The notes: a model not told the origin generated them from the sequence alone. 64,000 bases of DNA from an uncultured Acidobacteriota bacterium (GCA_963776495.1 CAVZMW010000006.1:1263954-1327953); one strand, 5' to 3'. Counted from the stretch's first letter, positions 4,308-59,396 are shown. Numbers and translations are program-made.

Positions 4308-4564
4308 TGGCAATTTGACCCGATTAGGATGACCGGCATGAGACGAGGGGATGACATATCTGTGACAGCCGCCCGGCGATGCGCGGGCGGGGCTTTCGTG
4401 TCGTATCGGCCGGACGAGGCGGCGTCAGGAGCGAACGCGCGGCGAACCGCCGGAACGGACCGCGCGGCGAGGTCCGGCGCCACGGGCGCGCTATAATCAG
4501 GCCCGGCCGGGAGCCCTTCCCGCGCAAGACTCGGCCGCCCGTCCCGCCCCCGCGGAGAGCTGCG

Positions 4565-7195: not shown

Positions 7196-8111
7196 TGGCG
7201 TCGCCGAACTCGGTGACGTCCATGTGGAGCAGGTAGTCGGTGACCACGCGGTTCTTCTGGCGCATGACGCTCGTGCGCTTCTGCGAGATCGAGAACCAGT
7301 CTTCGAGCAGGCGCAGCCGGGGGAAGAGCGTCGTCAACTCCCGCCGGGCGACCTTGCCGACGGCCGTGTACTTCGGGAGCAGGGCGACGCCGTATCCCTC
7401 GAGCGCGGCGTGGACCATCCCCCGGACCTGGTTGACCTCGATGACCTGCCGCAGCACCGGGCGGCGGCGGCCGGGAATCGACCGCAGCGCGTTGGCCCAC
7501 CAGGCCCCGTCCCGGTCGATCGAGATGACCGGCACCCGTTCGAGGTCGAGCGGCTGCCGGATGCGGTGCGCGCGGAGGAAGTCCGGCGAGGCGACGATCA
7601 GGTACTTCTCGCGGAAGAGCCGCGTCACCGTCAGCGACGGGTGCGTGTGGGCCGCGCAGTCCACGGCGATGTCGATCTCGTCGGCGAGCAGCGGCGACTC
7701 GAGGTCGTCGCGGAACCGGAAGTTGACGCGGAGCCAGGGGACGGCGTCGACGAGCGGCCGCAGCTTGCGGATGAGCACCGTCGTCCCGAATTCGACGGTG
7801 GCGCCGACGGTGATGGCCTGCGTGCCGCCCGGGGACCTGGTCGACAGCACGTGCTCGGCCTGGTCGATGTCCTGGAAGACCCGCTCGCACACCTCGCGAA
7901 CGTAATCGCCGTCGTCGGTCAGCGTGAGCCGACGGTGCCGCCACTCGACCAGGCGCCGCCCCGCGGCGTCTTCGAGCGTGCGGATCGCGTGGCTGACGGC
8001 CGAGGGGGTGATGTGCAGGCGCCGCCCCGCGGCCGTGTAGTTGCCGCTGCGCGTGGCCTCGAGGAAGATGCGGAGCCGGTTCAGTTCCAGCCGGGTGCGT
8101 TCGCTGCCCAT
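7176..8111 (-). CDS. LysR-family transcriptional regulator
   Basis: ATG 8111 preceded by GGAGG. The N-terminal HTH is LNRLRIFLEATRSGNYTAAGRRLHITPSAVSHAIRTLE, followed by a LysR substrate-binding region. Its 3' end overlaps the convergent upstream gene by 20 nt. Confidence 0.85.
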   Translation of the reverse strand: MGSERTRLELNRLRIFLEATRSGNYTAAGRRLHITPSAVSHAIRTLEDAAGRRLVEWRHRRLTLTDDGDYVREVCERVFQDIDQAEHVLSTRSPGGTQAITVGATVEFGTTVLIRKLRPLVDAVPWLRVNFRFRDDLESPLLADEIDIAVDCAAHTHPSLTVTRLFREKYLIVASPDFLRAHRIRQPLDLERVPVISIDRDGAWWANALRSIPGRRRPVLRQVIEVNQVRGMVHAALEGYGVALLPKYTAVGKVARRELTTLFPRLRLLEDWFSISQKRTSVMRQKNRVVTDYLLHMDVTEFGDAISGPAR

Positions 8112-8334
8112 GACGAGCCTCCGGGAAGACGTGCCAGGCGATGAATCCCGCTCATCGTACCAGAGAACTCTCATCGTTTCCCTCATCGATCGGGCCTGCG
8201 CTGGTCGTGCTGGGGGCGGCGGCTCCGGGGCCGCGCCCGTCCCGCAACCTCTCGGGTGCCGCGCACGTAGATCGCTGTGGGGGGATCGGCCGGCGGGCGG
8301 CCGTGCGCGCCCGATGGGGGGATCGGGGACCTCG

Positions 8335-9630
8335 ATGACCGAGCAGACGGCGCGGCTGCGCGACACGTTCGTGGGCCTCTGGAACGCGGCGGACCCGGAG
8401 ACTACCATCGACGGCCCGGTCTACACGGCCGCCGCGCACGGGCGCAACGAGCGCCAACTCCGGGACTTCGTCGACGTGCTCGAATCCGAATCGCGCCGCG
8501 CGCGCCGGCGGGCGCTCTCGAGCGAGGACGGCGAGCGGCGCGTGCGCGCCGCGTTTGCGACGCTCGCGAAGGGCGCGCTCGGGTGGAAGCGCGAGTACCT
8601 CGAGGGCACCGAGGCCAGGGCGTTTCGCGAGGCGCTGCGCGCGTTCCCCGTGCGGGCGCGCCGGTTCGACCCGCGGCTGTCGGCCGCGGACATCTACCAG
8701 GCGGCGCGCAACGCGCTCACGATGCACTGCCTGCAGAGCCTTCTCGGGGTGCCCGTCGAGCCGACGCCCGCCGTCCTCGGGTACAGCCTGCTGTACCCGT
8801 ATACCGACAACCTCATCGACGACCCGCGCCTGGACGTCTCGGCGAAGCTGGCCTTCGGCGAGCGGCTGGCCGACCGGCTGCGCGGCCGCCCGGTCGCGCC
8901 GGCCGATCCCCGCGAGGGGCGCATCTTCGATCTCGTCGGGATGATCGAGGGACAGCATCCGCGGGCGCGGAACCCGCACGTCTACGAGAGTCTTCTCGCC
9001 ATCCACGACGCGCAGCTGCGCAGCCTGGCGCTGATGGCGGGCGCGGCGCCGCCCGACGCACGGACGCTCGTCGAGATCGCCGTCGAGAAGGGCGGCACCT
9101 CCGTGATGGCGGACGGCTACCTCGTGTCGGAGTCGCTGACGTCGCGCGAGGTGGAGTGCATCTTCGGCATCGGGGCCTTCCTGCAGCTGCGCGACGACCT
9201 CGAGGATGTGCACGACGACGGGGCGGCCGGCGTCACGACGGTGTTCTCGGTCCACCGGGCCGACCGGCTCGACGAACCCACCGCGCGCGCGCTGGCCGTC
9301 GGCGCCGGCGTGCTGGAGCGCCTGTCCTGCTTCGACTCGCCACGGGCCGCGCCGGTCCGCGACATCATGGCGCGCAGCCTCCAGTGCACGATCGCGGACG
9401 CGGCCGCGTCGTTCCCCCGGCTCTACGGAGTCCCCTACCTCCGGGGACTCGAATCCCGGTCACCGTTCCGGTTTGCGTGCCTGGCCGAGCAGCGGCGCCG
9501 CCTGACGCGGGCCAACGGTTCGCTGACGGGGCTGCTCGAACGCTGGGTGTCGGCGTGCGCCGCGCCGACGGCCGCGCGCGGGCGCGAGCCGGCGCCGGCG
9601 CTCGTCCGAACGGCCCACGACGCGGCGTGA
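8335..9630 (+). CDS. class I isoprenoid-synthase-fold protein (polyprenyl/squalene-phytoene synthase-like), function unknown
   Basis: Two Asp-rich motifs lie ~130 aa apart: LLYPYTDNLIDD, and GIGAFLQLRDDLEDVHDD, which resembles GxAFQxxDDxxD / AFQLxNxLRDxxED. Transcribed divergently from the LysR gene. The start could also be ATG 8314. Confidence 0.45.
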   Translation: MTEQTARLRDTFVGLWNAADPETTIDGPVYTAAAHGRNERQLRDFVDVLESESRRARRRALSSEDGERRVRAAFATLAKGALGWKREYLEGTEARAFREALRAFPVRARRFDPRLSAADIYQAARNALTMHCLQSLLGVPVEPTPAVLGYSLLYPYTDNLIDDPRLDVSAKLAFGERLADRLRGRPVAPADPREGRIFDLVGMIEGQHPRARNPHVYESLLAIHDAQLRSLALMAGAAPPDARTLVEIAVEKGGTSVMADGYLVSESLTSREVECIFGIGAFLQLRDDLEDVHDDGAAGVTTVFSVHRADRLDEPTARALAVGAGVLERLSCFDSPRAAPVRDIMARSLQCTIADAAASFPRLYGVPYLRGLESRSPFRFACLAEQRRRLTRANGSLTGLLERWVSACAAPTAARGREPAPALVRTAHDAA

Positions 9631-9660
9631 GCCGCTCCGCACCCCGGTCGGCCGGACTCC

Positions 9661-10746
9661 CTACGGACGGGCCCGGAACCACCGCAGCACGAACCCCCGG
9701 GCCCGCCCAAACGGGCCCCGGGCGCGTTCGCCAGCTTCCTCGAGCAGGTAGGTGTGCCAGTCGTCGCGTTCGCTCGTGACGCGCAGCGGGGCCAGGGCCA
9801 GCAGTCCCGTCGGGCCGATCGAGCGGCGGAGGTAGCGCAGTTCGTCCAGTTTCGCCCTCAGGTCCGGGCCGGGTTCGACCGCGAGCCCTGTCTCGCGGGC
9901 CATCAGCATCCCCTTGGCGCGGATGGCCAGCTCCAGCTCGACCCGAAGCAGGCAGAACATGTCGGCCACCACCGGGCCGGGGAAATGGTCACGGAGTTCG
10001 ACGAGGTACTGACCCAGCCGGGTCTGGCCGAAGCTGGGAGACGTGACCAGGTGCAGCAGTTCCACGTCGAGGTCCAGCCCTTCTCCGACCCACTCGCGCG
10101 TCGCCCGTTCGCTCCGCTCGAACGCGAAGGTGACGACCACCGGCAGCGCGATCAGCAGCACGCACGTCTGCACGACCGGCGGCATGGGGAAGTGGTTGAA
10201 CACCGAATGGAGCACGACCGGCAGACCGAGGGCGGCCGCCGGCATCAGCATCCCGCGCCCCGGATGCCGCTCGATGAGACCTCGCGCGAGCATGGCGAAC
10301 AGGCTGGTCAGCGCCCCGTGCAGGATGGCCGGTCCGAAGCCGCGCACGAGCCACAGCGCGACGCGCGCGTGGGGCAGCGCTTGCAGGTAGTAGACGTTCT
10401 CGACGAGCGCGAACCCGGTGCCGACGGCGAACCCGACGAGCGCCGCGTCCACGAGGAACGCCAGGCGCCGCCGTCTGAGCAGGACGACCACGTAAACGGC
10501 CTTGAGCGGCTCTTCGATGAGCGGCGCCAGGTAGCGCGGGAGCACCAGGTCGAACAGTCCCGGCGGCAGGAGGCCCGCCGCCCGCAGCCCCTTCTCGATG
10601 GTCAGCGCCGCCACGGCGCTCGCCGCGCCGGCCAGGATCGCCAGGGCGAGCGCCCTGAACGGCACCAGCTTGAAGCTGTCCATCAGGAGCAGGACGCCCA
10701 GGAAGACGAGCACCGGGAGGAGGGCCGCCGCGACGCTGATCGGCAC
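9661..10746 (-). CDS. PrsW-family intramembrane metalloprotease with a ~150-aa cytoplasmic tail
   Basis: Multi-pass membrane protein carrying the PrsW/CPBP signatures LIEEPLK (EExxK), FALVEN, ILHGALT and LHSVFNH (HxxxN). Confidence 0.7.
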   Translation of the reverse strand: MPISVAAALLPVLVFLGVLLLMDSFKLVPFRALALAILAGAASAVAALTIEKGLRAAGLLPPGLFDLVLPRYLAPLIEEPLKAVYVVVLLRRRRLAFLVDAALVGFAVGTGFALVENVYYLQALPHARVALWLVRGFGPAILHGALTSLFAMLARGLIERHPGRGMLMPAAALGLPVVLHSVFNHFPMPPVVQTCVLLIALPVVVTFAFERSERATREWVGEGLDLDVELLHLVTSPSFGQTRLGQYLVELRDHFPGPVVADMFCLLRVELELAIRAKGMLMARETGLAVEPGPDLRAKLDELRYLRRSIGPTGLLALAPLRVTSERDDWHTYLLEEAGERARGPFGRARGFVLRWFRARP

Positions 10747-10756
10747 GGCCCGAATT

Positions 10757-13700
10757 CTACCTGAGGACCTTCAGCGAGACCATCGCTTCCCGCCGGGGCG
10801 AGTGATCCTTCTCGAAGGCGACCGCGCCGCCTACCGAGAACATCATGTCGAGGGTGGACAGGATGGTGAACTGGAAGTCCAGCTGACCGCCGACATCGGC
10901 CAGCACGTGCCGCACGGACCGGGAATCGACGTTGGTGGCCAGCCCGCCGGCGAAGAGCGCCGGGCGCATCCAGGAGACGTAGAAGCCGGGCCGCCCCGCG
11001 CGGCTGAACCGGACCGGCGGGAGGTCCCACTCCAGCACCGATTTCACGAAGTTCCGCCCGCCGACCTCGTTCAGATTCGCGCCGGGAAAGCTGTACCGCT
11101 CGCGGTACCGCTTCTCGCTCCCGTGGTCCACCCAGTTGTTGCCAAAGCCGCCGAAGTAGAAATTCGAGAAGACGGTGTCGGCCGGCCGGGGCGAGAACCC
11201 GGCGGCGTTCAGCAGCCACAACGACCAGTGGTGGCCGCCCGGCAGCGCCAGGCCCTCGTCGAAGGTGGCGTAGAAATGCGGGTAGGCCTGACCGCCGACG
11301 TAGTCGGCCTGCGCCACCAGTTTCGCCCGCGTTCCCTTCTCGTCGTCCACGTGGCCGAGCGACCAGCGCACGTTGCTGTAGGTGAGATCGACCTGGGCCG
11401 AGGCGAGCTTGGTCACCGACACCGGCACGTTCTGGTAGTCGGGCAGGCGATCGAGATTCCCCGAGACGCTCGCATCGATATTCAGGTCCAGCTTCCGGGG
11501 CTCGTCGTAGATGAGCGTGCGCGTGTGCCCGGCTCCGAAGACGTATCCCTTGCGCCCCTTCTTCGTCGGGCCGAAGAGATCGTAGAAATCGGCGTTGTTC
11601 AGCTCCGCCCTCGCCTTCCAGACGCCGGGCAGGAACCTGTTGATGCTGTATCGCGAGAGGTCGGCGCGCAGGTGCACCCGTTCGCTGTCACGGAGGCCTC
11701 CCGCCGGCGAGTAGCTGACCGACACGCCGAGGTGCGCCAGTTGGAGCGGGTCCGACAGGTTGACGCGGATGCCGACCGCCTGCGTGTCCTTGTAGCCCTG
11801 GACGATCGGGTAGACCGACTCCAGCGCGATGCCGGAGGTGAGACGGTACGGCCCTTGCCGCTTGGGCATCGTGTCGTACGGAACCTTGGATGGCGGCGGG
11901 ACCTGCCATTGCTGCAGGACCGGGTATTTCTCGATGACCTGTTGCCCCAGGAACGTGATCGGGTTGATGTCGGTGAGCGGCTGCACCGTGATGCGGGTGG
12001 GCACGAAGCCATTCCCCGAGTACCGGAAGACGAGCAGGTCGTCCCCCTCGAGCGGGATCGGGCGGAAGAACCCGGTTTCCGCGTTGGTCAGCGCCTCGAC
12101 CTTCCCGGCGGACAGGTCGTAGCGGAAGATGTTGGACACGCCCGTCGAATACGAGCTGCCGTACAGGTAGCGGCCGTCTGCCGAGAAGACGAAGCCCTGG
12201 GGCACCGACGCGCCGAAGCCGAACTGCGCGACCGGCGTGACATCGCCCTCGAGCAGCTTCGCGAGTTCGAACACGCGCACGGTCTGCTGCCCGTCGACCT
12301 CGCCGAACGACGCGGAGAGGTAGCGGCCGTCGCGCGACACATCGAGGTCGTACGGCACCGTCCCGTACGGAAACGTCTTCACCTGGTTCCACTCGGTGTA
12401 GGGCCGCGGGATCCGGACGATGGTGCAGAGGCCGTTCAGGTGGCGGATGCCCCACAGCGACCCGTCCGCCTGGTCGAAGGCCAGGTCGCCGATCCGCGCG
12501 TCCTTCATCAGCAGGCGTGTCTTCTTCGTCGCCGGATCGAGGGCGACCAGGTCGCGGAAGGCCGTGTTGTCGTTGGTGTAGAACAGCGTGCGCGATCCCG
12601 GGTCCCACGCGAGCGACGTGACGGTGTAGATGACCGGGTCCTTGATGTCCGCCAGCCGCTCGACCCTGCCGGAGTCGAGCGAGATCGCGCCCACGTGGGC
12701 GACGGCGCCCTGGTAGTTGAAGGCGCCGTAGATCGTTCGCGTCGAGCGATCGTAGTAGGACCTCGAAATCGACCCGAGCGCTCGCGGCGAAATGTCGTGC
12801 GTGGCGGTCACCGGGTACTTCCGGATCGCCTCGAGGTTCTTCTGCTGGAACGAGTGCTCGAACGCCACCCACTCGGCCCACGCGTCCTCGATCGAGCGGC
12901 CGTAGACCTTCTTGAACTGGGTCGCGTAGTACGCGCGGCTGCCGGGCGTGCGTGACAGCCACTCGACGAACTTCTCGGGCGAGTAGCGGTAGGCGAGCCA
13001 CGTCATGAACCGCTCGCCGTAGAGATAGGAGTTGATCTGCAGCTGGAAATCGATCTTGGTCCCCTCGGAGGCCAGGCCCAGCGGGTCGTAGAAGCGGGCC
13101 TGGTCGCGGACCTTCGACCGGAAGACCATCTCGTCGTAGCCGCCCTGCGCGCGGCCGATGCCGCCCGCCATCCAGGTGTCGGTGAAGACGGCCGAGCCCT
13201 CGTGGTACCAGCGCGGCGCGGCCACCCGCGGCGACGTGAGATAGAAGTACAGGATGGTCTCCGGCTGGTCGGCGATCGGCGTCACCTTCCCCTGGAACAG
13301 GCGGCGGAAGACGCGGTCCGGCCCGGCCGCTCCGTCCATCGTCGCCACGTGGACCAGTTCGTGATTCATGATCACGATCACGCGATCATTGGCGGCGAGC
13401 GTCTCGAACGAGTAGTTGAGCGGCGAGATCTGGATCTGCAGCGTGTCGCGAGGCACCGTGCCGGCGCTCGCGTCCCCCGTGTCGGAGAAATCGGCGAGCA
13501 GCACCGTGACCTTCTCCCACGGCTCGTAGTTCCACAGGCGCCGCTGGAACGCCAGGGAGGTGAGGAAGGCGCGCGCGGCGTGGGGCACGAGATACGATTC
13601 GCTGCCTTCGAAGTAGATCAGTCGCAGCGAGTCCACGTTGAGTTCGCCCATCTGCGCGGAGGCCGGCGCGCCCGCCGCGAGGAGCGCAAGCGCCGGGAGG

Positions 13701-13765
13701 ACGCGAGCCAGGACGCGACGAACCGTCAGGGGGCGGGCGGGCCGGCCGGCGGATGACAAGGCCAT
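10757..13765 (-). CDS. exported Peptidase_MA-like / beta-propeller / Omp85-like beta-barrel protein (1002 aa)
   Basis: ATG 13765 after GGAGGGG. Signal peptide LPALALLAAGAPASAQ. NHELVHV...WYHEGSAVF is the gluzincin HExxH...E pattern of Peptidase_MA_2. The central region carries TolB-like repeats (SRDGRYLSASF, SADGRYLYGSS, DPGSRTLFYTN). The C-terminal third is a barrel-like region (FYFGGFGNNW...). Confidence 0.6.
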   Translation of the reverse strand: MALSSAGRPARPLTVRRVLARVLPALALLAAGAPASAQMGELNVDSLRLIYFEGSESYLVPHAARAFLTSLAFQRRLWNYEPWEKVTVLLADFSDTGDASAGTVPRDTLQIQISPLNYSFETLAANDRVIVIMNHELVHVATMDGAAGPDRVFRRLFQGKVTPIADQPETILYFYLTSPRVAAPRWYHEGSAVFTDTWMAGGIGRAQGGYDEMVFRSKVRDQARFYDPLGLASEGTKIDFQLQINSYLYGERFMTWLAYRYSPEKFVEWLSRTPGSRAYYATQFKKVYGRSIEDAWAEWVAFEHSFQQKNLEAIRKYPVTATHDISPRALGSISRSYYDRSTRTIYGAFNYQGAVAHVGAISLDSGRVERLADIKDPVIYTVTSLAWDPGSRTLFYTNDNTAFRDLVALDPATKKTRLLMKDARIGDLAFDQADGSLWGIRHLNGLCTIVRIPRPYTEWNQVKTFPYGTVPYDLDVSRDGRYLSASFGEVDGQQTVRVFELAKLLEGDVTPVAQFGFGASVPQGFVFSADGRYLYGSSYSTGVSNIFRYDLSAGKVEALTNAETGFFRPIPLEGDDLLVFRYSGNGFVPTRITVQPLTDINPITFLGQQVIEKYPVLQQWQVPPPSKVPYDTMPKRQGPYRLTSGIALESVYPIVQGYKDTQAVGIRVNLSDPLQLAHLGVSVSYSPAGGLRDSERVHLRADLSRYSINRFLPGVWKARAELNNADFYDLFGPTKKGRKGYVFGAGHTRTLIYDEPRKLDLNIDASVSGNLDRLPDYQNVPVSVTKLASAQVDLTYSNVRWSLGHVDDEKGTRAKLVAQADYVGGQAYPHFYATFDEGLALPGGHHWSLWLLNAAGFSPRPADTVFSNFYFGGFGNNWVDHGSEKRYRERYSFPGANLNEVGGRNFVKSVLEWDLPPVRFSRAGRPGFYVSWMRPALFAGGLATNVDSRSVRHVLADVGGQLDFQFTILSTLDMMFSVGGAVAFEKDHSPRREAMVSLKVLR

Positions 13766-13900
13766 CGAATCCCCTCCACGTTGGCTTCGCGCACCGACGG
13801 TCGCCCACTCCGTTCGCGGCCGGGCGGCCATGAACGCAGAACCGCCCGGCGGTCTCCACGCAGGAGGCTGCCGGGCGCTCTGTCTTGCCGAGGAGCGGCG

Positions 13901-15547
13901 CTACCGCCGCAGGAGGCTCGCCGAGAACACCGACGGGTTCTGCAGCGCCTGTCGGAACGCCGCGTTGGTGAACGCCTTCGTGAGGTCCGGGTTGTCGAAC
14001 GCTTTGGAGATGGCCGGGTCGGCGAACGCCTTCGAGATGGCCGGGTCGGCGAACGCCTTCGAGATGGCCGGATCCGCGAACGCCTTCGAGATGGCCGGAT
14101 CCGCGAACGCCTTCGAGACGGCCGGGTCCGCGAACGCCTTCGAGACGGCCGGGTCCGCGAACGCCTTGGCGACGGCCGGGTCCGCGAACGCCTTCGAGAC
14201 GGCCGGATCCGCGAACGCCTTCGCGACGGCCGGATCCGTGAACGCTTTCGCGACGGCCGGATCCGCGAACGCCTTCGAGACGGCCGGATCCGCGAACGCT
14301 TTCGAGACGGCCGGGTCCGCGAACGCTTTCGAGACGGCCGGGTCCGCGAACGCCTTCGAGACGGCCGGATCCGCGAACGCCTTCGCGACCGCGGGGTCGG
14401 CGAACGCCTTGGCGACGGCCGGATCCGCAAACGCCTTCGCGATTGCGGGGTCGGCGAACGCTTTCGAGACTGCCGGTTTGTTGAGCGCCTTGGCGACGGC
14501 CGGATCCGCAAACGCCTTCGCGACAGCCGGATCCGCGAACGCCTTGGCGACGGCCGGGTCCGCGAACGCCTTGGCGACGGCCGGGTCCGCGAACGCCTTG
14601 GCGACAGCCGGATCCGCAAACGCCTTCGCGACAGCCGGATCCGCGAACGCCTTGGCGACAGCCGGATCCGCGAACGCCTTGGCGACGGCCGGGTCCGCAA
14701 ACGCCTTCGCGACGGCCGGGTCCGCAAACGCCTTCGCGACGGCCGGGTCCGCAAACGCCTTCGCGACGGCCGGGTCCGCAAACGCCTTCGCGACGGCCGG
14801 ATCTGCGAACGCCTTCGAGACAGCCGGGTCCGCAAACGCCTTCGCGATTGCGGGGTCGGCGAACGCCTTCGCGACGGCCGGGTCGGCGAGCGCCTTGCAA
14901 AGCGCCGCGTTGCCCAGCAGCGCACGCACGTTCTTGTCCTTGAGCAGCCGGTCGAAGGAGTCGCTCTGCAAGAACGCCTGCACTTCGGCGTTGTCGAGCA
15001 CGACGTCCTTCGAAGACGGTTGCGCTCCGCGGTAGCGATCGGCGGCCCCAATCGTGCCCTGGGCGCCCTGGTCGACCGACCGGGTGCCGTTGAAGTACAC
15101 GACCGCGAGAACGACGATGACCGCGAGTCCGGCGATCCCCCACAGCGCCTTCTTTGCCACGATCACACCTCCTCCGGCCATGCCGGCCTTGCGGTACGAC
15201 TCCACGTGAGCCTTGTCCTGCTCGGAATGATGCGGGAACCCGTCGAAAAGTTGGTGGCCCATGCCGCCTGCCAACGCGCCGACCCGTTCGCGCCACCCGC
15301 GGCGAGGGGGCGGGGACTCGGCCACCGCGGCCATCACCCGCTCGGCGAGCGCCGTCGGGGGAGACGGCCGTCCTGGCGCCCCGAGCAGCGCCGCCAGTTG
15401 TTCGAGGCTGTCCGCCCGTGCCCGGAGCGCCGGATCCTCGACCAGGCGGGCGCGCAGGACCGCAGCCTCCTCGTCCGAGAGCGTCCCGTCGAGCGCACGG
15501 TGCAGGAATTCCTCGTCGCGAGGCGCGATCATCTTGTCCTTTTCCAT
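13901..15547 (-). CDS. single-pass anti-sigma factor with a nonapeptide-repeat extracytoplasmic domain
   Basis: ATG 15547 lies inside the 3' end of the sigma gene. N-terminus MEKDKMIAPRDEEFLHRALDGTLSDEEAAVLRARL is anti-sigma-like. One TM segment (ALWGIAGLAVIVVLAVVYF). About 35 KAFADPAVA-type repeats follow. Confidence 0.7.
   Translation of the reverse strand: MEKDKMIAPRDEEFLHRALDGTLSDEEAAVLRARLVEDPALRARADSLEQLAALLGAPGRPSPPTALAERVMAAVAESPPPRRGWRERVGALAGGMGHQLFDGFPHHSEQDKAHVESYRKAGMAGGGVIVAKKALWGIAGLAVIVVLAVVYFNGTRSVDQGAQGTIGAADRYRGAQPSSKDVVLDNAEVQAFLQSDSFDRLLKDKNVRALLGNAALCKALADPAVAKAFADPAIAKAFADPAVSKAFADPAVAKAFADPAVAKAFADPAVAKAFADPAVAKAFADPAVAKAFADPAVAKAFADPAVAKAFADPAVAKAFADPAVAKAFADPAVAKAFADPAVAKAFADPAVAKALNKPAVSKAFADPAIAKAFADPAVAKAFADPAVAKAFADPAVSKAFADPAVSKAFADPAVSKAFADPAVSKAFADPAVAKAFTDPAVAKAFADPAVSKAFADPAVAKAFADPAVSKAFADPAVSKAFADPAISKAFADPAISKAFADPAISKAFADPAISKAFDNPDLTKAFTNAAFRQALQNPSVFSASLLRR
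13967..14905. repeat. tandem 27-bp repeat, about 35 units (939 nt / 27), coding
   Basis: The plus strand reads ...gccgggtccgcgaacgccttcgcgac... repeated head to tail. The minus-strand frame gives K-A-F-A-D-P-A-(V/I)-(A/S). The units at both ends and one internal unit (ALNKPAVS) are degenerate. Confidence 0.9.
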
Positions 15548-16080
15548 GACAGGAGATCCTCCCCAAGCCGCTGCCGCGCCGAGTAGAGCCGCGATTTCAC
15601 CTTCTTCTCGGGGACCCCGAGCACGCCGGCGATCTCGACGTACCGACAGGTTCGCATAGTGGCGCAACACGATGACCTCGCGCGAGATCGATGGCAGCCG
15701 CAGGAGGGCGGCCTGCACGTCGGCCCGCAACTCCGCTCGCTCGGCGTCCCGGTGGGGATCCTCCCGCGCCGCCAGCCTCGCGTCGAGCGGCTCCAGCGCC
15801 CGGCGCGACCGCCGGACGTTCAGGCACTCGTTCACGAGGATGCGGTAGACCCAGCTGAAGAACTTGTGCCTTCGGTCGAACGTCTGGAGTTTCCGGTAGG
15901 CGCGGACGAACGCGTCCTGGACGGCGTCGGCCGCCTGGTCGCCGTCGCCGAGCAGGCGGATGGCGACGCCGAACAGCACCCGCTGGTGGCGTTCCACGAG
16001 CGGCCGGTAGGCCGCCCGATCCCCCCGAGGACCCGTTCGACGAGGACGATGTCGTCGTCCTCACCTATAGGCAATGACAC
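15529..16080 (-). pseudogene. ECF (group 4) sigma-70 factor, frame interrupted twice as assembled
   Basis: Three frames must be joined. They read (GTG 16080) VSLPIGEDDDIVLVERVLGG, then DRAAYRPLVERHQRVLFGVAIRLLGDGDQAADAVQDAFVRAYRKL...VIVLRHYANLS, then YVEIAGVLGVPEKKVKSRLYSARQRLGEDLLSWKRTR*. One base is missing in the C6 run 16021-16026. One extra base lies at GTACC 15640-15644. Confidence 0.75.
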
Positions 16081-16162
16081 GGAGCCCCCCGGAATAGTTG
16101 GCCGAGAAGGCGCGACCCGATGCGGCAGGCGGCATACATATACCACGATCTCGGGTGGTATC

Positions 16163-16642
16163 ATGATCGCGTTTTCGCCGACGCCAATGTCCTCGACGCC
16201 TCGAGCCACCGTGCGCGTCGCCCCCGATCCAGCCGGGATCGCCTTGGCGGCCGACCGCCTCGATCGGTTCTGGGCGGAAGCCGGGCTCGACCCGGGCTCG
16301 GCCTGGCCGGTCCACGTGGCGCTCGACGAAGTCCTGTCGAACATCGTGCGCCATGGAGGGGCCGCCGGAAGCGTGCCGCTCATCGACGTCACGTTCACCC
16401 GCGCCGACAGCGGGGGCGTCGAGGTGACCGTCGTCGACGACGGGCCGGAATTCGATCCCCTGCAGGTGCCGGAACCCGATCTCGCGTCGCCGCTCGACGT
16501 GCGCCGTGCGGGCGGACTCGGCATCCACCTGGTCAGGCACCTGATGGACAAGGTGGCATACGCGCGCCGCGGGGAACGCAACTGGCTCGTCATCGCCCAC
16601 CGTGCCCGGCCGGCCGGTTCGCCGGACCGCGAGAGGGACTGA
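16163..16642 (+). CDS. RsbW/SpoIIAB-like anti-sigma regulatory factor (serine kinase, HATPase_c)
   Basis: ATG 16163. Motifs LDEVLSNIVRHG (N-box-like) and DDGPEFDP...GGLGIHLVRHLMD (G-boxes). About 160 aa, typical of partner-switching kinases. Confidence 0.7.
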   Translation: MIAFSPTPMSSTPRATVRVAPDPAGIALAADRLDRFWAEAGLDPGSAWPVHVALDEVLSNIVRHGGAAGSVPLIDVTFTRADSGGVEVTVVDDGPEFDPLQVPEPDLASPLDVRRAGGLGIHLVRHLMDKVAYARRGERNWLVIAHRARPAGSPDRERD

Positions 16643-16646
16643 ACGA

Positions 16647-16991
16647 ATGGACATCCACCAGGAACGCCTCGGCCAGGTGCTGGTCATCGCGCCAGCCGGC
16701 CGCCTCGACTCCACGACCACGGATGCGCTCGAGCAGGCGTTGACGGCGGCGCACGGGGGCGGGGAGCGCCATGTCGTCATCGACTTCGGCGGCGTGGACT
16801 ACATCAGCAGCCTCGGCTTGCGCGCGCTGCTCGTCGCCGCCAGGCGGATGCGGGAGCGCCGGGGCACGCTGGTGCTCTGCGTCCTGGGCGACGCCGTGCG
16901 CCAGGTGTTCGAGCTCGCCGGCTTCCTGTCGCTCTTCATCGTCGAACCGACCCGGGAGCAGGCCGTGACACGCTGCGGGTCGGACGCCTAG
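16647..16991 (+). CDS. STAS-domain anti-anti-sigma factor (RsbV/SpoIIAA-like)
   Basis: MDIHQERLGQVLVIAPAGRLDSTTTDALEQAL...DFGGVDYISSLGLRALL contains the phosphorylatable DYISS(L)G motif. Confidence 0.8.
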   Translation: MDIHQERLGQVLVIAPAGRLDSTTTDALEQALTAAHGGGERHVVIDFGGVDYISSLGLRALLVAARRMRERRGTLVLCVLGDAVRQVFELAGFLSLFIVEPTREQAVTRCGSDA

Positions 16992-17019
16992 CCCGGGCTG
17001 GGAGAAAGGCCGGACCGTC

Positions 17020-18684
17020 GTGGCCGTGCTCGAACTGCGCATAGAGTCCGCGGGTGGCGCGCCGGTCGCGAGGACCTTCGACGCCGAGTCGCTCGTGATC
17101 GGCCGAAAGGCCGGCGCCGACATCGTCGTCGACGACGTCAGCGTCTCCCGCCGGCACGCCAGGCTGTTCGCCGCGAAGGGGGAGTGGTTCGTCGAGGATC
17201 TCCAGTCGCGCAACGGGTCGCGGCTGAACGGGCTCCCGATCACCGCGGCGGTCGGCGTCAAGGGCGGTGACGTCCTCCAGGTGGGGGACACGAGGCTGCG
17301 GGTGGTCGCGGCGGGCGCCGAGCCTCCGGCCGCCCCGACGGCGGCGATGGCGGTCGACGAGGCGCTGTTCTCGGTGCTCAAGCCCGCCTCGGAGCTGCTC
17401 GGCCGGCCCGCCGACGATGCCGCGGCTTCCTCGCGCCTGCGCCTGCTCAACGAGGTGCACCGGGCGCTCGCGACGCCCATCTCGCGCGACGACCTGCTCC
17501 GCTTGATTCTCGACCGCGCGTTCGCGGCGCTCGAACCCGAGGACGGGGCCGTGTTCCTGAAGGCCGCGGACGGAACGCTCGAGAAGGCAGCCGAACGCCG
17601 CTCCCCCCGGTCGCCGGGCCCGTTGCTGGTGTCGCGGCGGCTGGCCGAGGAGGTCGCGGGCAAGGGGGCGGCGGCGCTGGTGCTCGACGCGCGGGTCGAC
17701 GAGCGGTTCGCGGCGGCCGAGAGCGTCATCATGTCGGGCGTCCGCAGCATCCTCGCCGCGCCGTTGAGCGATGCCGGGGGTTGCCTCGGCATGATCGCGC
17801 TGTACTCGAACGCCGCGGCCCGCCTGTTCTCGGAGCAGGACCTGGAGTTGCTCGTCTCGCTCGCCTCGGCGGCCGCGCTGCGCGTGCGGAACATCGAGCT
17901 GGCCGAGCAGGAAGCCGAGCGCCGGGCCGTCGATCGCGAACTGGCCCTGGCGCGCGAGATCCAGATGGCGATGCTCCGGCGCCGGCCCCTCGGGCGCGAC
18001 GAGGTGGACGTGGCCGCGCGGCAGGAGACGGCCCGGCAGGTCGGTGGCGACTTCTACGAGTTCGTCGTGGACGCCGACCGGCTGTGGTTCGTCGTCGCCG
18101 ACGTGGCGGGCAAGGGGATGGCGGCGGCACTGACGATGGCGATGTCGCAGGCGCTCTTTCGCGCGATCGCCGCGCTCCGGCTGCCGCTCGGCGACGCCGT
18201 CGCCCGGCTCAACGGGGAACTCGCGCGCGACAACGAGCGGGCGATGTTCGTCACCGCGCTGGCCGGATGCCTGGACCTGGGGACCGGGCGGCTCGAGTTG
18301 GCCAACGCCGGCCACAACCTGCCGTATCTGCTTCGTCGGGACGGCAGCGTCGAGCTGCTCGCGGCGCGCAACGCGCTGGCGCTCGGCGTGATGGCGGACG
18401 TCGCGTTTCCCGTGACCGGGGTCGTCCTCGAGCCGGGTGACGGGCTCTTCCTCTACACCGACGGCGTCTGCGATGCGGTCGGCCCGGACGGGAGCCGCTT
18501 CGGCACCGCCGGCCTCGAGCGGCACCTGCGCGCGGTCGGCCGGCAGCACTCGGCCTCCCTCGTCGACGGCGTCTTCCGGGCGGTCGAGGCGTTCGCGGGC
18601 GGCGCCCCGCAGGAAGACGACATCACCGTGGCCGTGGTGCGCTACAAGCCGATGGCGAAGGCCCCGCTCCGGCGCGCCGACTGA
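17020..18684 (+). CDS. FHA-GAF-PP2C(SpoIIE) phosphatase, RsbU-like
   Basis: N-terminal FHA (LVIGRKAGADIVVDDVSVSRRHARLF...FVEDLQSRNGSRLNG). Central GAF-like region. C-terminal PP2C motifs (GGDFYEF, FVVADVAGKG, LYTDGV, DDITVAVV). Confidence 0.8.
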   Translation: MAVLELRIESAGGAPVARTFDAESLVIGRKAGADIVVDDVSVSRRHARLFAAKGEWFVEDLQSRNGSRLNGLPITAAVGVKGGDVLQVGDTRLRVVAAGAEPPAAPTAAMAVDEALFSVLKPASELLGRPADDAAASSRLRLLNEVHRALATPISRDDLLRLILDRAFAALEPEDGAVFLKAADGTLEKAAERRSPRSPGPLLVSRRLAEEVAGKGAAALVLDARVDERFAAAESVIMSGVRSILAAPLSDAGGCLGMIALYSNAAARLFSEQDLELLVSLASAAALRVRNIELAEQEAERRAVDRELALAREIQMAMLRRRPLGRDEVDVAARQETARQVGGDFYEFVVDADRLWFVVADVAGKGMAAALTMAMSQALFRAIAALRLPLGDAVARLNGELARDNERAMFVTALAGCLDLGTGRLELANAGHNLPYLLRRDGSVELLAARNALALGVMADVAFPVTGVVLEPGDGLFLYTDGVCDAVGPDGSRFGTAGLERHLRAVGRQHSASLVDGVFRAVEAFAGGAPQEDDITVAVVRYKPMAKAPLRRAD

Positions 18685-18747
18685 CCCGCGCGCCGGGGGG
18701 CGCCAATCGACCCTGGAGTTGCGGCGCCGCGCGCCCCGCGTGAACGG

Positions 18748-21700
18748 TCACTCGGCCGCGGCCGAATCGAGGGCGGGCTGCCTGGCCGCCTTGCGTCGCG
18801 CCAGCCACTCCTGCAGCTGCTCCATGTAGATGTAGAAGATCGGCGTGACGTAGAGCGTCAGCGTCTGCGACACGATCAGGCCGCCCACCACCGAGAGCCC
18901 GAGCGGACGCCGCGCCTCCGAGCCCGCGCCCCAGCCCAGCGCGATCGGCAGCGTGCCCATCAGCGCCGCCATCGTCGTCATCATGATCGGGCGGAACCGG
19001 ACCCGGCAGGCTTCGTAGATCGCCTCCGGCGCGGTGAGGTTCCCCCGCCGGCGGGCCTCGATCGCGAAGTCGATCATCATGATGCCGTTCTTCTTCACCA
19101 GGCCGACGAGCATGATGATGCCGACAAACGCGTAGATGTTCAGGTCGTACTTGAAGAGGTAGAGCGTCAGCAGGGCGCCGAAGCCGGCCGACGGCAAGCC
19201 GGAGAGAATCGTCAGCGGGTGGATGAAGCTCTCGTAGAGGATGCCCAGCACCACGTAGATCACGAAGATGGCGAGGGCGAGCACCCAGCCCAGGCCCGTC
19301 ATCGAATCCTGGAACGCCTGCGCCGTGCCCTGGAAGCTCCCGGAGATCGTCGCCGGGAGCGTGTCGCGGGCGACCGTCTGGACCTTCGCCACGGCGTCGC
19401 CGAGCGCGACGCCCGGCTTGAGGTTGAACGACAGGGTGACCGACGGCAGCTGCCCGGTGTGGTTCACCGAGAGCGGGCCCGCGGTCTGGCGCGTCCGCAC
19501 GACCGCCGAGAGCGGCACCAGCGTGCCGGCCGGCGAGGTGAGGTAGAGCAGCGACAGCGCGGCCGGATCGCGCTGGTAGGGCGGCGCGACCTGCAGGATG
19601 ACCTGGTACTGATCGTCGGGCGCGTAGATCTGCGACACCTGCTCGGACCCGTACGAGGAGTTCAGCGCCGATTCGACATGGTCGACCGTCAGGCCGAGCG
19701 CGGCGATCTGGTCGCGGTCCAGGTCCACGTTGAGCTGCGGGTTGCGGATCTGCAGGTCCGAGGTGACGTCCTCGATGCCCTCGACCGCGCGCAGGGCCGT
19801 CTCGAACTGCGGCGCCGCCTTGTACAGCTCGTCGGTGTCCGGGTCCTGCAGCGTGAACTGGTACTGGCTCCGCGTCATCATCCCGCCGATCCGGATGGCC
19901 GGGGGATTGACGAGGAAGACCCTGATGCCCGGGATCCGCGCGAGCTTCGGGCGGATCGCCTCGATCACCTGGTCCGCCGTGAGCGGACGCTGGTCGCGCG
20001 GCTTGAGGTCGACGTTCAAGCGGCCGCCGGCGCCGCCGACGTTGGCCGTGTAGCCGGCCACGTTGTCGTCGTGCGCGAGGACGTTCATCACGTCCTTGAC
20101 GCGGGCCACCGTGGCGTCGAACCCGAGCCCCTGGAGCGTCTCGACCTGGCCGCTGAGCTGCCCGGTGTCCACGCTCGGGATGAAGCCCATCGGGATGAGC
20201 GTGAACAGGTAGACCGTGCCGGCCAGCAGCAGGGCCGACACCCCCATGGTGGTGCCCTTGAACCGGATCGTCTGGCGCAGCGACCACGAGTAGCCCTGCA
20301 GCCACGCCTCGAACATCCGCTCCATGACGTTGTAGAACCAGCCGTGCCGGACCGCGTGCGGCGACTGGAGGAACCGGCTGCAGAGCATCGGCGTCAGCGT
20401 CAGCGAGACGAGGCCGGAGACGAGGATGGCCGCGCCGATGGTGACCGCGAACTCGTGCATCAGCCGGCCGACGACGCCGCCCATGAACAGCACCGGGATG
20501 AACACCGCGGCGAGCGACAGCGTCATCGACACGATCGTGAAGGCGATCTCCTTCGACCCGTCGAGCGCCGCCTGCAGCCGCGGCTTGCCCATCTCCATGT
20601 GCCGGACGATGTTCTCGAGCATGACGATCGCGTCGTCGACGACGAAGCCCACCGAGAGCGTGAGGGCCATCAGCGACAGGTTGTCGAGGCTGTACCCGAG
20701 CAGGTACATCACGGCGAACGTGCCGACGATCGAGAAGGGCAGCGCGAGGCTGGGGATGATCGTCGCTGAGAAGTTCCGGAGGAACAGGAAGATCACGAGC
20801 ACGACGAGCGCGATCGTCAGCTGCAGGGTGAACTTGACGTCGCCCACCGATTCGCGGATCGGGACCGATCGATCGCTGCGGACGCGCAGGAGCACCGACG
20901 CCGGGAGTTGCCCCTCGAGCTGCGGCAGCACCGCCTTGATCCGGTCGACCACCTCGACGGTGTTGGTCCCGGGCTGCCGCTGGATCGCGAGGTAGATCGT
21001 GCGCGCGCCGTTGTACCAGCCCGCGTTCCGCTCGTTCTCGACGCCGTCGTAAACGTGGGCGACGTCGCCCAGGCGGACGGGGCTGCCCTTGCGCCACGCC
21101 ACGACGATCCGCTTGTAGTCCTCGGCCGCCATGAGCTGCCCGGACGCCTGGATGACGAAGTTGCGGTCGGGTCCGAACAGCGTGCCGGTCGGGGTGTTCA
21201 CGTTCGCCGACGTGATGGCCGACGCCACCTGGTCGATGCCGATCAGCCGCGACGCGAGCTGCATCGGATCGACGTCCACGCGCACGGCGAACTTCTGCGA
21301 CCCGTACACGCTCACCTGGGCGACGCCCGTGATCATCGACAGGCGCTGGGCCAGCAGGTTCTGCGCGTAGCGGTCGAGCTGCGACAGCGGCAGGGTCGGG
21401 GAGCTCAGCGTCAGGAAGAGCACCGGGGAGTCGGCCGGGTTGACCTTCTGGTAGGACGGCGGCGCGGGCATCCCGGGCGGCAGCTGGCGCTGCGCGCGGG
21501 CGATCATCGACTGCACGTCCTGCGCGGCAGCGTCGATCGACCGGCTCAGGTCGAACTGCAGCGTGATGCTGGTCGAGCCCTGCGTGTTGCTCGAGCTGAT
21601 CGAGCTGACGCCGGCGATGGTCGAGAACTGCTTCTCGAGCGGCGTCGCGACCGACGCCGCCATCGTCTCCGGGCTCGCGCCCGGCAGGCCCGCGTTGACC

Positions 21701-21837
21701 TGGATCGTCGGGAAGTCGATCGTGGGGAGGTCGTTCACCGGCAGGAGCCGGTAGCCCATGATGCCGAAGATCAGGATCGACAGGACGAGCAGCGTGGTGG
21801 CGACGGGGCGGCGGATGAACGGTTCGGCGAAGTTCAT
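18748..21837 (-). CDS. RND efflux transporter, inner-membrane permease (HAE1-type)
   Basis: 1029 aa. N-terminus [29 protein letters not shown] with AcrB/MdtC-like organisation throughout. Confidence 0.9.
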
Positions 21838-21852
21838 GATGGGGTCTCCCGC

Positions 21853-23097
21853 CTACCGGCCGCCGCGGGAACCCTGGCCGCGCGGCTCGCCGGGGCCGGC
21901 GCGACCGGGCGCCGCCTCGCCCCGCTCGACCACGCGGGCGCCGGGCGTGAGCCGCAGGTGCCCGTCGGTGACGACGGTCTCCCCGGCGCTGACGCCGCTC
22001 TCGACGACCACCTGGTCTCCCTGCTGGCGATCGACCTTCACGGGCCGCATCTCGACCGTGCGGTCGCTCCTCACCACGTAGACGTACTGTCCGTCCTGCG
22101 ACGTCTGCACCGCCACCGCGGGGACCACCAGGGCGTTGGGGTCGCTCGTCAGGTCGAGGACCACCTGGACGAAGGCGCCCGGCCACAGCAGGTGCCCCGC
22201 GTTCGCGAACGTCGCCTTCAGCCGGATGGTGCCGGCCGCCGGGTCCACGCTGTTGTCGATGAAGGTCACCGTGCCCCGGTCCCGCGCCGTGAGCGTGGCC
22301 GGCGCCTGGCCGGGGGGCGCCGTGGCCGACTGGTCCGCGCCGGGCGGGAGGACCGCCGAGACCTGGAGCGGCCGCTCGCCCTGGTACTGCCGGACCTTCG
22401 CGAGGTAGAGCCCGGGGACCGAGAACGCCACGTAGACGGGCGAGAGCTGGTTGATCACCACGAGCGCCGTGGTGTCGGCGGACGAGACGAGGTCCCCTTC
22501 GTGGACGCCGAGCGAGCCGGTGCGGCCGGCGAGGGGCGCCTTGATCTCGGTGAACTGGAGATTCAGCCGCGCGCTCTCGATCGCGGCCTGGTCCGCGGCG
22601 ACCGTGCCCGCGAGGGCCCCCGCGCTGGCGCGCTGGGCTTCGTACTGGTCGCGGGAGACCAGTCCCCGGTTGAACAGGTTCTCGAGGCGCGACTGCTGGG
22701 CCTGCGCGTTCTGCCAGGTCGCCGTGTCGCGGGCGAGCACCGCCTCGGCCTGGTGGAGGGCGGCTTCGAACGGCCTCGCGTCGATGCTGAACAGCGGCTG
22801 TCCTTTCTCGACGTCCTGGCCCTCGACGAAGTGGATGGCGCCCACCTGCCCGGAGACCCGCGAGCGGACCTGGACGCTGGCGATCGTCTCGACGGCGCCG
22901 ACAGCGGAGAGCGTCACCGGCATCGGCCTCCGCTCGACGCGCGCGGACACGATCGGGACCGGGCCACCGCCCGCGCGCCCTCCGGCGCGCCCACCGGGCG
23001 GCGCGGCGTCGCCGGCGCCGGACGACGGCGAGCAGGCGGCGAGCGGCAGGCACGAGACGAGGAGTGCGAGGACGGGGCGACGGATGTCTGTCAGCAT
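21853..23097 (-). CDS. RND efflux membrane-fusion (periplasmic adaptor) lipoprotein
   Basis: Lipobox LPLAAC. Lipoyl-like, coiled-coil and beta-barrel MFP segments (ARLNLQFTEIKAPLAGRTG). It lies 15 nt upstream of the RND permease. Confidence 0.85.
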   Translation of the reverse strand: MLTDIRRPVLALLVSCLPLAACSPSSGAGDAAPPGGRAGGRAGGGPVPIVSARVERRPMPVTLSAVGAVETIASVQVRSRVSGQVGAIHFVEGQDVEKGQPLFSIDARPFEAALHQAEAVLARDTATWQNAQAQQSRLENLFNRGLVSRDQYEAQRASAGALAGTVAADQAAIESARLNLQFTEIKAPLAGRTGSLGVHEGDLVSSADTTALVVINQLSPVYVAFSVPGLYLAKVRQYQGERPLQVSAVLPPGADQSATAPPGQAPATLTARDRGTVTFIDNSVDPAAGTIRLKATFANAGHLLWPGAFVQVVLDLTSDPNALVVPAVAVQTSQDGQYVYVVRSDRTVEMRPVKVDRQQGDQVVVESGVSAGETVVTDGHLRLTPGARVVERGEAAPGRAGPGEPRGQGSRGGR

Positions 23098-59393: not shown

Positions 59394-59396
59394 CCT

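Follow-up and report, generated by a model that had tools for sequence, protein, structure and literature searches.

A widespread gene cassette with an ECF sigma factor and a candidate regulated-proteolysis mechanism in an uncultured Acidobacteriota bacterium

Results

The seven-gene cassette

In the 64,000 nucleotides of DNA from an uncultured Acidobacteriota bacterium analysed here (GCA_963776495.1 CAVZMW010000006.1:1263954-1327953; this whole stretch, with about 70% G+C, is called the window), seven genes at positions 9661-18684 form a cassette of four minus-strand genes and a divergent three-gene module (Table 1). The four encode a sigma factor of the extracytoplasmic function (ECF) type, an anti-sigma domain fused to a membrane repeat protein, an exported protein that we name BIG, and a PrsW-family intramembrane protease; the three encode an RsbW-like kinase, a STAS protein and a SpoIIE-type phosphatase. 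The seven genes very probably make up one signalling system that links the envelope to gene expression, because they stay together in at least eight phyla and have a promoter-like motif in common, of which one copy (P1) lies at the start of the sigma gene and a second (P2) upstream of the repeat protein. As judged from sequence comparison, the chances are about evenly balanced that the cassette is a copy of a widespread, uncharacterised ECF sigma signalling cassette that works by regulated proteolysis.

The minus-strand genes follow each other in the order sigma, anti-sigma, BIG, PrsW, and no gene was called in between on either strand. The anti-sigma start codon (ATG at 15547) lies 19 nt within the 3' end of the sigma gene, the BIG ATG is preceded by a GGAGG Shine-Dalgarno sequence 7 nt upstream, and the divergent sigma and kinase genes are separated by 82 bp. 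A preliminary description of this locus, made from the sequence alone, had given the gene order, strands, gaps and coordinates, all of which were reproduced by our open reading frame (ORF) calls. Every cassette product except BIG was supported by Pfam or NCBIfam matches, which are weak for the anti-sigma domain.

Table 1. Positions of the genes and sequence features of the cassette in the window
Feature	Position	Strand	Remarks
PrsW-family intramembrane protease	9661-10746	-	361 aa; Pfam PF13367
BIG, exported protein	10757-13765	-	1002 aa; 10-nt gap to PrsW gene
GC-rich stem-loop	13843-13877	-	15-bp arms; in the gap between anti-sigma and BIG genes
Anti-sigma/membrane repeat protein fusion	13901-15547	-	548 aa; 135-nt gap to BIG gene
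27-nt tandem repeat array	13970-14896	-	Tandem Repeats Finder: 34.3 copies, 88% matches; encodes AFADPAVAK-type units
Internal in-frame start region, candidate	15158-15181	-	ATG 15181-15179; GGAGGAGG 15175-15168; GTG 15160-15158
P2, ECF-type motif	15226-15254	-	CCAACTTTTCGACGGGTTCCCGCATCATT; within fused anti-sigma gene
ECF sigma factor gene	15529-16080	-	two frameshifts in assembly; repaired product 183 aa
Frameshift 2	15643-15644	-	extra G, TCGGTAC versus TCGTAC in the ortholog of the related locus L084
Frameshift 1	16021-16026	-	run of 6 G; L084 ortholog has one base more
P1, ECF-type motif	16073-16101	-	CCAACTATTCCGGGGGGCTCCGTGTCATT; overlaps sigma GTG start codon (16080)
Candidate sigma-70-type extended -10	16137-16145	-	TGGTATATG; upstream of P1, towards sigma; tentative
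RsbW-like serine kinase/anti-sigma-type protein	16163-16642	+	159 aa; HATPase_c_2
STAS anti-sigma-antagonist-type protein	16647-16991	+	ORF from 16602, likely ATG 16647
FHA-GAF-PP2C (SpoIIE-type) phosphatase	17020-18684	+	554 aa

Conservation of the gene neighbourhood

A scan of one genome per species yielded 80 loci and exact look-ups added four; 82 loci were searched. Their six-frame ORFs were compared with the window proteins, and counts were restricted to loci with enough flanking sequence; they are lower bounds, as single-sequence searches overlook divergent members. The loci belong to Vicinamibacteria and other Acidobacteriota, Woeseiaceae, Steroidobacteraceae, Lysobacterales, Betaproteobacteria, Eisenbacteria, Ignavibacteriales, Bacteroidota, Zixibacteria and KSB1. 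Four of them (L014, L027, L049 and L053) are labelled Bifidobacteriaceae, Bifidobacterium breve, Dormiibacterota or Levyibacteriota and are probably mis-binned contigs.

Conservation of the neighbourhood had been proposed as the main check on the cassette, and the run indeed recurs in at least eight phyla. The PrsW gene lies directly downstream of BIG in at least 67 of 76 loci, and the repeat protein or anti-sigma gene directly upstream in at least 54 of 60. An orthologous ECF sigma gene is found upstream of BIG on the same strand at no fewer than 38 of 49 loci. STAS or RsbW adjoins BIG in at least 35 of 42 loci and PP2C in at least 18 of 42, with STAS as the most persistent cytoplasmic neighbour (32 of 42). 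Where both flanks were available, PrsW, repeat protein, sigma and STAS or RsbW were all present in at least 25 of 38 loci. Since this arrangement recurs across phyla, it is far beyond chance.

The module is divergent in Vicinamibacteria and lies on the same strand, directly upstream, in the loci examined from Proteobacteria, Eisenbacteria, Ignavibacteriales and Zixibacteria; the same-strand order is PP2C, RsbW, STAS, sigma, anti-sigma, repeat protein, BIG and PrsW. In Steroidobacteraceae the genes are rearranged and nonetheless still linked. At one locus of this family (L051:12961-16154) P2, repeat protein and BIG are followed by a PrsW-family gene, which is on the opposite strand, and this in turn by P1, the sigma gene and a gene for a likely anti-sigma of 249 aa; this locus was scored as PrsW-less in the counts, and Pfam finds the inverted PrsW-family gene right after BIG. 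At L048, L057 and L081 the sigma gene lies about 1.8-1.9 kb downstream of BIG.

A single gene encodes both the anti-sigma domain and the repeat protein in the window, as it does in other Vicinamibacteria, Betaproteobacteria and one Ignavibacteriales locus. In metagenome-assembled genomes of Woeseiaceae and other gammaproteobacteria (for example L032) and in Eisenbacteria (for example L061), two separate genes follow the sigma gene. The product of the first is an anti-sigma protein of 250-270 aa, in which an anti-sigma domain and a transmembrane helix are accompanied by a small domain in the periplasm. The product of the second spans the membrane once and has the conserved juxtamembrane module (GTIGAA.RY...Q....DV.L.D...Q.FLQSD) and a long tail of tandem repeats. 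The occurrence of the two as fused genes in some lineages and split genes in others is an argument for joint action of repeat protein and anti-sigma factor.

The promoter-like motif

A bipartite motif, CCAACyTTT-N12-(k)GTAwTT, was found at the sigma start in all 43 sigma-bearing loci (P1), in 41 of them with the spacing CAAC-N17-GTA. The canonical spacing of ECF promoters, known from sigma-E-type promoters, is AAC-N17-GTC. A second copy (P2) is located 45-100 nt upstream of the start codon of the repeat protein in about 30 loci. The strict pattern gave 61 hits in 1.33 Mb, both strands counted: 30 at the sigma start, most of the others just upstream of the repeat-protein gene and about ten elsewhere. 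In the 64-kb window P1 is the sole exact match, against 0.01 expected; the P2 of the window has an A for G at the first -10 position and TCATT in common with P1. Within a lineage P1 and P2 also have their variable flanks in common, as with GCGTGTAATTG in Betaproteobacteria, CCGGTATGT in L064 and CCCGTATTC in L077. The motif connects the sigma gene and the block of repeat protein, BIG and PrsW with a common regulator, for which the sigma factor itself is the simplest candidate.

In every phylum examined, the -10 part of P1 abuts or overlaps the start codon of the sigma gene: its end is 3 nt ahead of the ATG in most phyla, whereas Vicinamibacteria, the window included, show an overlap with the one start codon available (in the window GTG at 16080). 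A conserved CA or CAGA stands at the expected transcription start of P2 generally and of P1 in Vicinamibacteria. Two other explanations of P1 were ruled out: it is not an RNA hairpin, CAAC and GTGT not being complementary, and it is not a promoter for the opposite strand, its orientation being constant with or without a divergent gene.

The internal in-frame start of the fused gene would yield a repeat protein beginning (M)AKKALWGIAG, and stand-alone repeat proteins begin MAKK..W.(I/V).G after a similar Shine-Dalgarno sequence; the fused gene may thus give two products.

Upstream of P1, towards the sigma gene, an element of the type TGnTAnAnn was seen in 12 of the 18 divergent-type loci that have P1, at a distance of 13-47 nt (mostly 18-30). 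Besides the window, the loci with such an extended -10-like sequence, TG(n)TA(T/G)A(A/G), are L001, L002, L003, L007, L010, L011, L014, L015, L018, L028 and L046. It may be a housekeeping promoter for basal expression of the sigma factor; a consensus promoter scan found no sigma-70-type promoter.

The sigma factor gene and its frameshifts

After repair of two frameshifts, and only then, the 183-aa sigma product matches Sigma70_r2 (2e-18) and Sigma70_r4_2 (4e-14) in Pfam, with no match for region 3. It also matches TIGR02937 in NCBIfam with 106 bits against a cut-off of 42.9. With regions 2 and 4 and neither region 3 nor region 1.1, it belongs to the ECF (group 4) sigma factors. It stayed below the cut-off of every NCBIfam equivalog (SigM, SigW, RpoE and others), and no named ECF group was assigned.

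The closest relative found, L084, in which BIG is 84% identical, has an intact 183-aa sigma factor (L084:954-1505). The sigma DNA of the window aligns with this ortholog at 91% identity, and its frame is broken twice. The second frameshift joins the middle of the sigma gene in frame to the anti-sigma gene, which produces an artificial ORF of 698 aa (13901-15997). The gene for histidyl-tRNA synthetase (hisS, 58141-59416, plus strand) in the same window likewise has two frameshifts, near 58570 and 59210. Histidyl-tRNA synthetase sequence is recognisable in all three frames and both pieces of hisS match tRNA-synt_His, which indicates indel errors in the assembly. Because this essential gene is also frameshifted, the sigma frameshifts are probably assembly errors as well, and we treat the sigma factor as functional. 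Programmed frameshifting in the sigma gene was ruled out by the same kind of damage in hisS.

The anti-sigma/membrane repeat protein

The 548-aa fusion protein consists of a predicted N-terminal anti-sigma domain, one transmembrane helix, a juxtamembrane motif and about 34 nine-residue repeats. Residues 13-92 gave weak, sub-threshold NCBIfam anti-sigma matches (E = 3e-6 and 2e-5), and Pfam gave no anti-sigma match in the protein; a single hydrophobic helix is visible. The juxtamembrane motif GTIGAADRY...Q...DV.L.D...Q.FLQSD is kept in 44 homologs. The repeat units differ completely between lineages, with AFADPAVAK in the window and DAFRQALAS, ELQAALKSP, IRDFEKAQA and SGVQ elsewhere, and their copy number varies too, while helix and juxtamembrane module are conserved. 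The gene had been described as a repeat-bearing anti-sigma factor; repeats and membrane helix are present, and the protein combines an anti-sigma domain with a conserved membrane repeat protein that is distinct from it.

The stem-loop in the gap behind this gene has a counterpart in the same gap in seven of eight loci checked (among them L084:3019-3059, L001:9891-9929, L003:9897-9929, L046:9945-9978, L002:9881-9926 and L061:9780-9823), the structure being kept and the sequence not. It may be an attenuator or an mRNA-stability element that sets the expression ratio of the repeat protein to BIG and PrsW. An Rfam scan of positions 9000-19500 gave zero matches.

BIG

BIG has more than 5,700 homologs, of which the best 120 are 60-87% identical, and it has no significant match in Pfam or NCBIfam. 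An AlphaFold2 model based on 120 sequences (predicted local distance difference test, pLDDT, 88.4; predicted template modelling score, pTM, 0.87) contains a signal peptide, a helical N-domain (about 38-315), a propeller with about six blades (about 320-595) and a barrel of long strands (about 636-1002).

Foldseek with the whole model returned propellers only, with TolB (7mx5, 2hqs, 1c5k) at E = 1e-7 to 4e-6, and the N-domain was therefore modelled separately. Its top 50 matches in the PDB were all M1 aminopeptidases, among them IRAP, E. coli PepN, LTA4H and tricorn F3, with template modelling scores of 0.36-0.50 and E-values from 4e-4, for an isolated-domain model with a pLDDT of only 69.5. 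H135, E136, H139 and E189, which correspond to HExxH plus Glu, are invariant in 120 homologs. Fold and residues point to an M1-like gluzincin with an intact metal site. Profiles for Peptidase_MA_2 or Peptidase_M1 from Pfam or NCBIfam did not match BIG even at E = 10. The exopeptidase motif GxMEN was not seen in BIG, which has an invariant FET..N.R upstream of HExxH instead.

The propeller is predicted to be TolB-like with about six blades, and PD40 matches were obtained in 17 of 18 homologs, each below the cut-off. For the C-terminal part a beta-barrel is predicted. Among 18 homologs, nine gave weak matches to PF19143 (Omp85_2), the best with E 0.0027, but the window protein gave none; no POTRA domain was found, and a profile search against PDB sequences returned nothing for the N-domain or the barrel, including no solved Omp85 structure; the link to Omp85 is weak. 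Of the earlier view of BIG as an exported protein with gluzincin, propeller and Omp85-like parts, the gluzincin, through its fold and invariant residues, and the propeller, through its TolB matches, stood, and the Omp85 label is only weakly backed.

The PrsW-family protease

The PrsW protein matches PF13367 over residues 29-205 with E = 1e-22 (81 bits against a cut-off of 23.5), and E78, E79, K82, H143, H180 and N184 (EExxK, H and HxxxN) are invariant in 18 homologs. Profile and residues place it, as had been supposed, in the PrsW family (PF13367, MEROPS M82), and its catalytic motifs are intact. It bears an extra cytoplasmic C-terminal domain of about 150 aa, which is highly conserved in the 18 homologs and has no Pfam match. 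An exhaustive search of 1.84 billion representatives found this domain in 502 clusters, at residues 200-340 of full-length PrsW hits of about 330-360 aa; shorter hits resemble gene fragments, and no other architecture was found among these representatives. No fusion of PrsW to STAS or RsbW was found among the homologs.

The partner-switching module

All three proteins of the divergent module gave Pfam domain matches in agreement with the RsbW-like, STAS and FHA-GAF-PP2C identities first assigned to them. The kinase matches HATPase_c_2 (2e-24) and, weakly, RsbW and SpoIIAB in NCBIfam, and N-box and G-box are visible in its sequence. The STAS protein matches STAS (1e-18) and, above the cut-off, TIGR00377 (3e-19); its DYISSLGL motif has the usual phosphorylatable serine. 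The phosphatase matches SpoIIE/PP2C (1e-49), FHA (3e-15) and GAF (1e-12), and versions in other phyla are GAF-PP2C without FHA. With a kinase, a STAS protein with the serine and a PP2C phosphatase, the module is of the RsbW/RsbV/RsbU type. In some Acidobacteriota, STAS is fused to FHA-GAF-PP2C (L001:4869-6956, and a 777-aa ORF in L003), so that antagonist and phosphatase are one polypeptide.

The preliminary description had found no group-3 sigma factor in the window. A phmmer search of the 64 kb with an ECF query, which has limited sensitivity for group-3 sigma factors, likewise returned no other sigma-like ORF, and the only sigma factor adjacent to the module in related loci is the ECF one.

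Flanking genes

The genes that flank the cassette are unrelated to it. An RND efflux pair (AcrB-type protein and membrane-fusion protein, 18748-23097, minus strand) converges on the phosphatase gene; such a pair also adjoins the phosphatase gene in L001 (L001:1-4815), which is probably local synteny. Beyond the PrsW gene lie a LysR regulator and proteins without a Pfam match. Also outside the cassette, 3033-4424 (minus strand), 4379-7195 (plus) and 8041-9630 (plus) correspond to an Omp85-superfamily protein (PF01103, 3e-8) and ORFs of 938 aa and 529 aa without a Pfam match.

Discussion

The locus had been proposed as a single envelope-signalling cassette, and synteny, the shared motif and the fusion of anti-sigma domain and repeat protein link its parts. 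Regulated proteolysis appears to be the best-supported mechanism. In such a mechanism, the sigma factor would be held at the inner membrane by the anti-sigma/repeat protein, with repeat tail and juxtamembrane motif in the periplasm. BIG would reside in the outer membrane, with metalloprotease and propeller in the periplasm, where it would sense an envelope condition and bind or trim the repeat tail. PrsW would then cut near the membrane at the juxtamembrane module as site-1 protease, like Bacillus PrsW on RsiW, and a site-2 protease encoded elsewhere would release the sigma factor. Free sigma factor would transcribe from P1 and P2 and resupply anti-sigma, repeat protein, BIG and PrsW, which would reset the system. 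STAS protein, RsbW-like kinase and GAF-PP2C phosphatase (in this lineage with FHA too) would add a cytoplasmic, phosphorylation-dependent input. In B. subtilis, PrsW is the established site-1 protease for RsiW (PMC10202637).

Several observations weigh against this proposal, which as a whole is deduced from sequence. PrsW reaches 34 bits against the cut-off of 225 of the NCBIfam equivalog NF033739 and is by this cut-off not an ortholog of Bacillus PrsW. The M1-like fold of BIG is one that exopeptidases typically have, and of the repeat tail only a C-terminus is available in the periplasm. In a clade of Vicinamibacteria (L020, L022, L023, L024), PP2C, STAS and RsbW are divergent from repeat protein, BIG and PrsW, and sigma factor, anti-sigma domain and CCAAC motif are all missing from these four loci. 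At L027 and L029, beside a two-component system, only STAS, BIG and PrsW are retained: at L029:7194-9947, and likewise in L027, the genes of a histidine kinase and of an OmpR-type response regulator, with a divergent STAS gene after them, stand directly upstream of BIG and PrsW in the place of sigma, anti-sigma and repeat protein. Because sigma-less loci keep the protease trio, it has a function for which this sigma factor is not required. The geometry of P1 is a further difficulty. ECF-dependent transcription usually starts about 10-12 nt after the G of GTA, and the sigma start codon would be absent from a P1 transcript of this kind, which would begin within the first codons of the sigma gene. 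As P1 abuts or overlaps the start codon, its position is at odds with simple positive autoregulation. Possibly, the mRNAs are leaderless and the geometry is unusual; it is also possible that sigma-dependent transcripts skip the sigma gene and express only the anti-sigma and downstream genes, in which case read-through transcription out of the STAS operon, or the extended -10 element, might provide for the sigma factor.

The main rival explanation sees in repeat protein, BIG and PrsW a machine for envelope maintenance or processing, for instance one that degrades periplasmic or outer-membrane proteins. This machine would be the target and not the activator of the sigma factor, sigma and anti-sigma only setting its amount. 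P2 puts the trio in the likely regulon of the sigma factor, sigma-less loci retain the trio, and BIG resembles peptide-degrading assemblies of M1 peptidase and propeller, with tricorn F3 among the fold matches. However, the repeated fusion of anti-sigma domain and repeat protein argues that the latter belongs to the control of the sigma factor, the only characterised function of PrsW is anti-sigma cleavage, and STAS and RsbW travelling with the trio would be left unexplained; we regard the machine, including the degradative version of it, as rather unlikely. Partner-switching modules classically act on group-3 sigma factors, and RsbW, STAS and PP2C might thus be a separate switch with another sigma factor or a non-sigma target, outside the pathway. 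Such a separation would agree with the Bordetella btr genes, where BtrU, BtrV and BtrW lie beside the ECF sigma factor BtrS and have no known control route to it (PMC7498569), and sigma-positive loci often lack neighbouring RsbW and PP2C genes (for example L002, L006, L007, L010, L018, L021). Against it, STAS or RsbW is adjacent in those 35 of 42 loci across phyla and lies on the same strand directly upstream of P1 and the sigma gene in the loci examined from Proteobacteria, Eisenbacteria, Ignavibacteriales and Zixibacteria, and STAS is kept beside BIG and PrsW in sigma-less and minimal loci, which makes a separate switch distinctly unlikely.

Also to be weighed is true decay of the sigma gene, which would mean that the cassette is being lost in the source organism. 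The preliminary description had allowed for a dead pseudogene, and two frameshifts were indeed found, within 552 bp, with the remaining six genes intact. We hold true decay to be very improbable: both indels affect G residues, the closest relative keeps an intact sigma gene, essential hisS in the same window carries two frameshifts as well, and the source is a 1.6-Mb metagenomic contig.

Within the regulated-proteolysis proposal, the target of the phospho-switch could be the sigma factor, the anti-sigma domain or the C-terminal domain of PrsW. That the last is a plausible STAS target is speculation, which starts from the minimal loci L027 and L029: among the products there (STAS, BIG and PrsW), this domain and STAS itself are the sole cytoplasmic parts of any size. 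At the other sigma-less loci, RsbW and PP2C are encoded as well, and STAS might bind to either. One further reading, of a trans-envelope "fuse", would combine three properties, a spacer made of the repeat tail, a gated PrsW and purely negative feedback, and this combination as a whole we consider improbable. As parts of it, the repeat tail would reach BIG in the outer membrane and be consumed or released as a length-tunable timer or spacer, and its loss would expose the juxtamembrane motif to PrsW. The phosphorylation state of STAS would gate PrsW through the C-terminal domain, so that the output of the switch would be a protease and not a sigma factor. Transcription from P1 would start past the sigma start codon, and active sigma factor would make more inhibitor and protease and not more of itself.

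PrsW-dependent cleavage of anti-sigma factors is known from Firmicutes; to our knowledge, the function of PrsW homologs in bacteria with an outer membrane is essentially unstudied. The pathway proposed here would couple an outer-membrane-anchored protease to an ECF sigma factor, and it is a widespread candidate, with BIG homologs from soil, sediment and freshwater lineages of many phyla. The cassette unites regulated proteolysis, as proposed, with STAS/RsbW partner switching, although the sigma factors on which these two mechanisms act are usually of different classes. In the scans made here, the large and conserved BIG family had no significant Pfam match, and the cytoplasmic C-terminal domain of PrsW is new and specific to this subfamily. 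Mapping of the regulon can make use of the promoter-like motif, and a promoter nested in the anti-sigma gene would permit two products from one gene. The preliminary description knew of no described system of this composition, and full-text literature searches, of incomplete coverage, found none either; in its main text, the ECF reclassification paper names none of these neighbours. Three components appear to be undescribed in the literature searched, namely BIG as a family, the membrane repeat protein and the C-terminal domain of PrsW.

Among known systems, sigma-W/RsiW/PrsW/RasP of B. subtilis has in common with the cassette an ECF sigma factor, a single-pass membrane anti-sigma factor, here a predicted one, and a PrsW-family protein, here a candidate site-1 enzyme. 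In Bacillus, the extracytoplasmic stub of the anti-sigma factor is trimmed further before site-2 cleavage. In contrast to the sigma-W system, the PrsW gene is here part of the same operon, and its product has an extra cytoplasmic domain and scores far below the equivalog cut-off; the hosts are diderm and the cassette includes a protease/propeller protein with a predicted outer-membrane anchor, its anti-sigma factor has a long tandem-repeat tail and a STAS/RsbW/PP2C switch is attached. The E. coli sigma-E/RseA/DegS/RseP pathway is similar in that the envelope status is relayed to an ECF sigma factor by stepwise proteolysis of the anti-sigma factor, which is what we propose here; unlike it, the cassette has no DegS-type PDZ serine protease and no RseB, and its candidate sensor is a predicted outer-membrane protein with a metalloprotease domain. 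As in FecA/FecR/FecI, the gene of an outer-membrane protein, here a predicted one, adjoins an anti-sigma/ECF sigma pair; however, the gene order differs, and neither BIG nor the anti-sigma factor had a Pfam or NCBIfam match to TonB-dependent receptor, plug, STN or FecR.

The module itself, with a PP2C phosphatase, a STAS protein with the conserved serine and a HATPase_c_2 kinase, is like RsbU/RsbV/RsbW of sigma-B and SpoIIE/SpoIIAA/SpoIIAB of sigma-F, but the linked sigma factor is an ECF sigma factor with its own membrane anti-sigma, and no group-3 sigma factor was found nearby. Co-location of an ECF sigma gene with a PP2C/kinase/STAS switch is also seen in Bordetella (BtrS with BtrU, BtrW and BtrV; PMC7498569), whereas the btr system controls type III secretion, has a secreted anti-sigma factor, BtrA, and is without PrsW, BIG and repeat protein. 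In archaeal peptide degradation by tricorn and its M1 factor F3, a beta-propeller is paired with an M1-type gluzincin domain, as in BIG; BIG differs in fusing both in one exported protein that ends in a predicted outer-membrane barrel, and no tricorn catalytic domain was detected in it. None of the sigma-W, sigma-E, Fec and btr systems combines these parts. We infer that the cassette is a variant of ECF regulated-proteolysis signalling, with a new composition.

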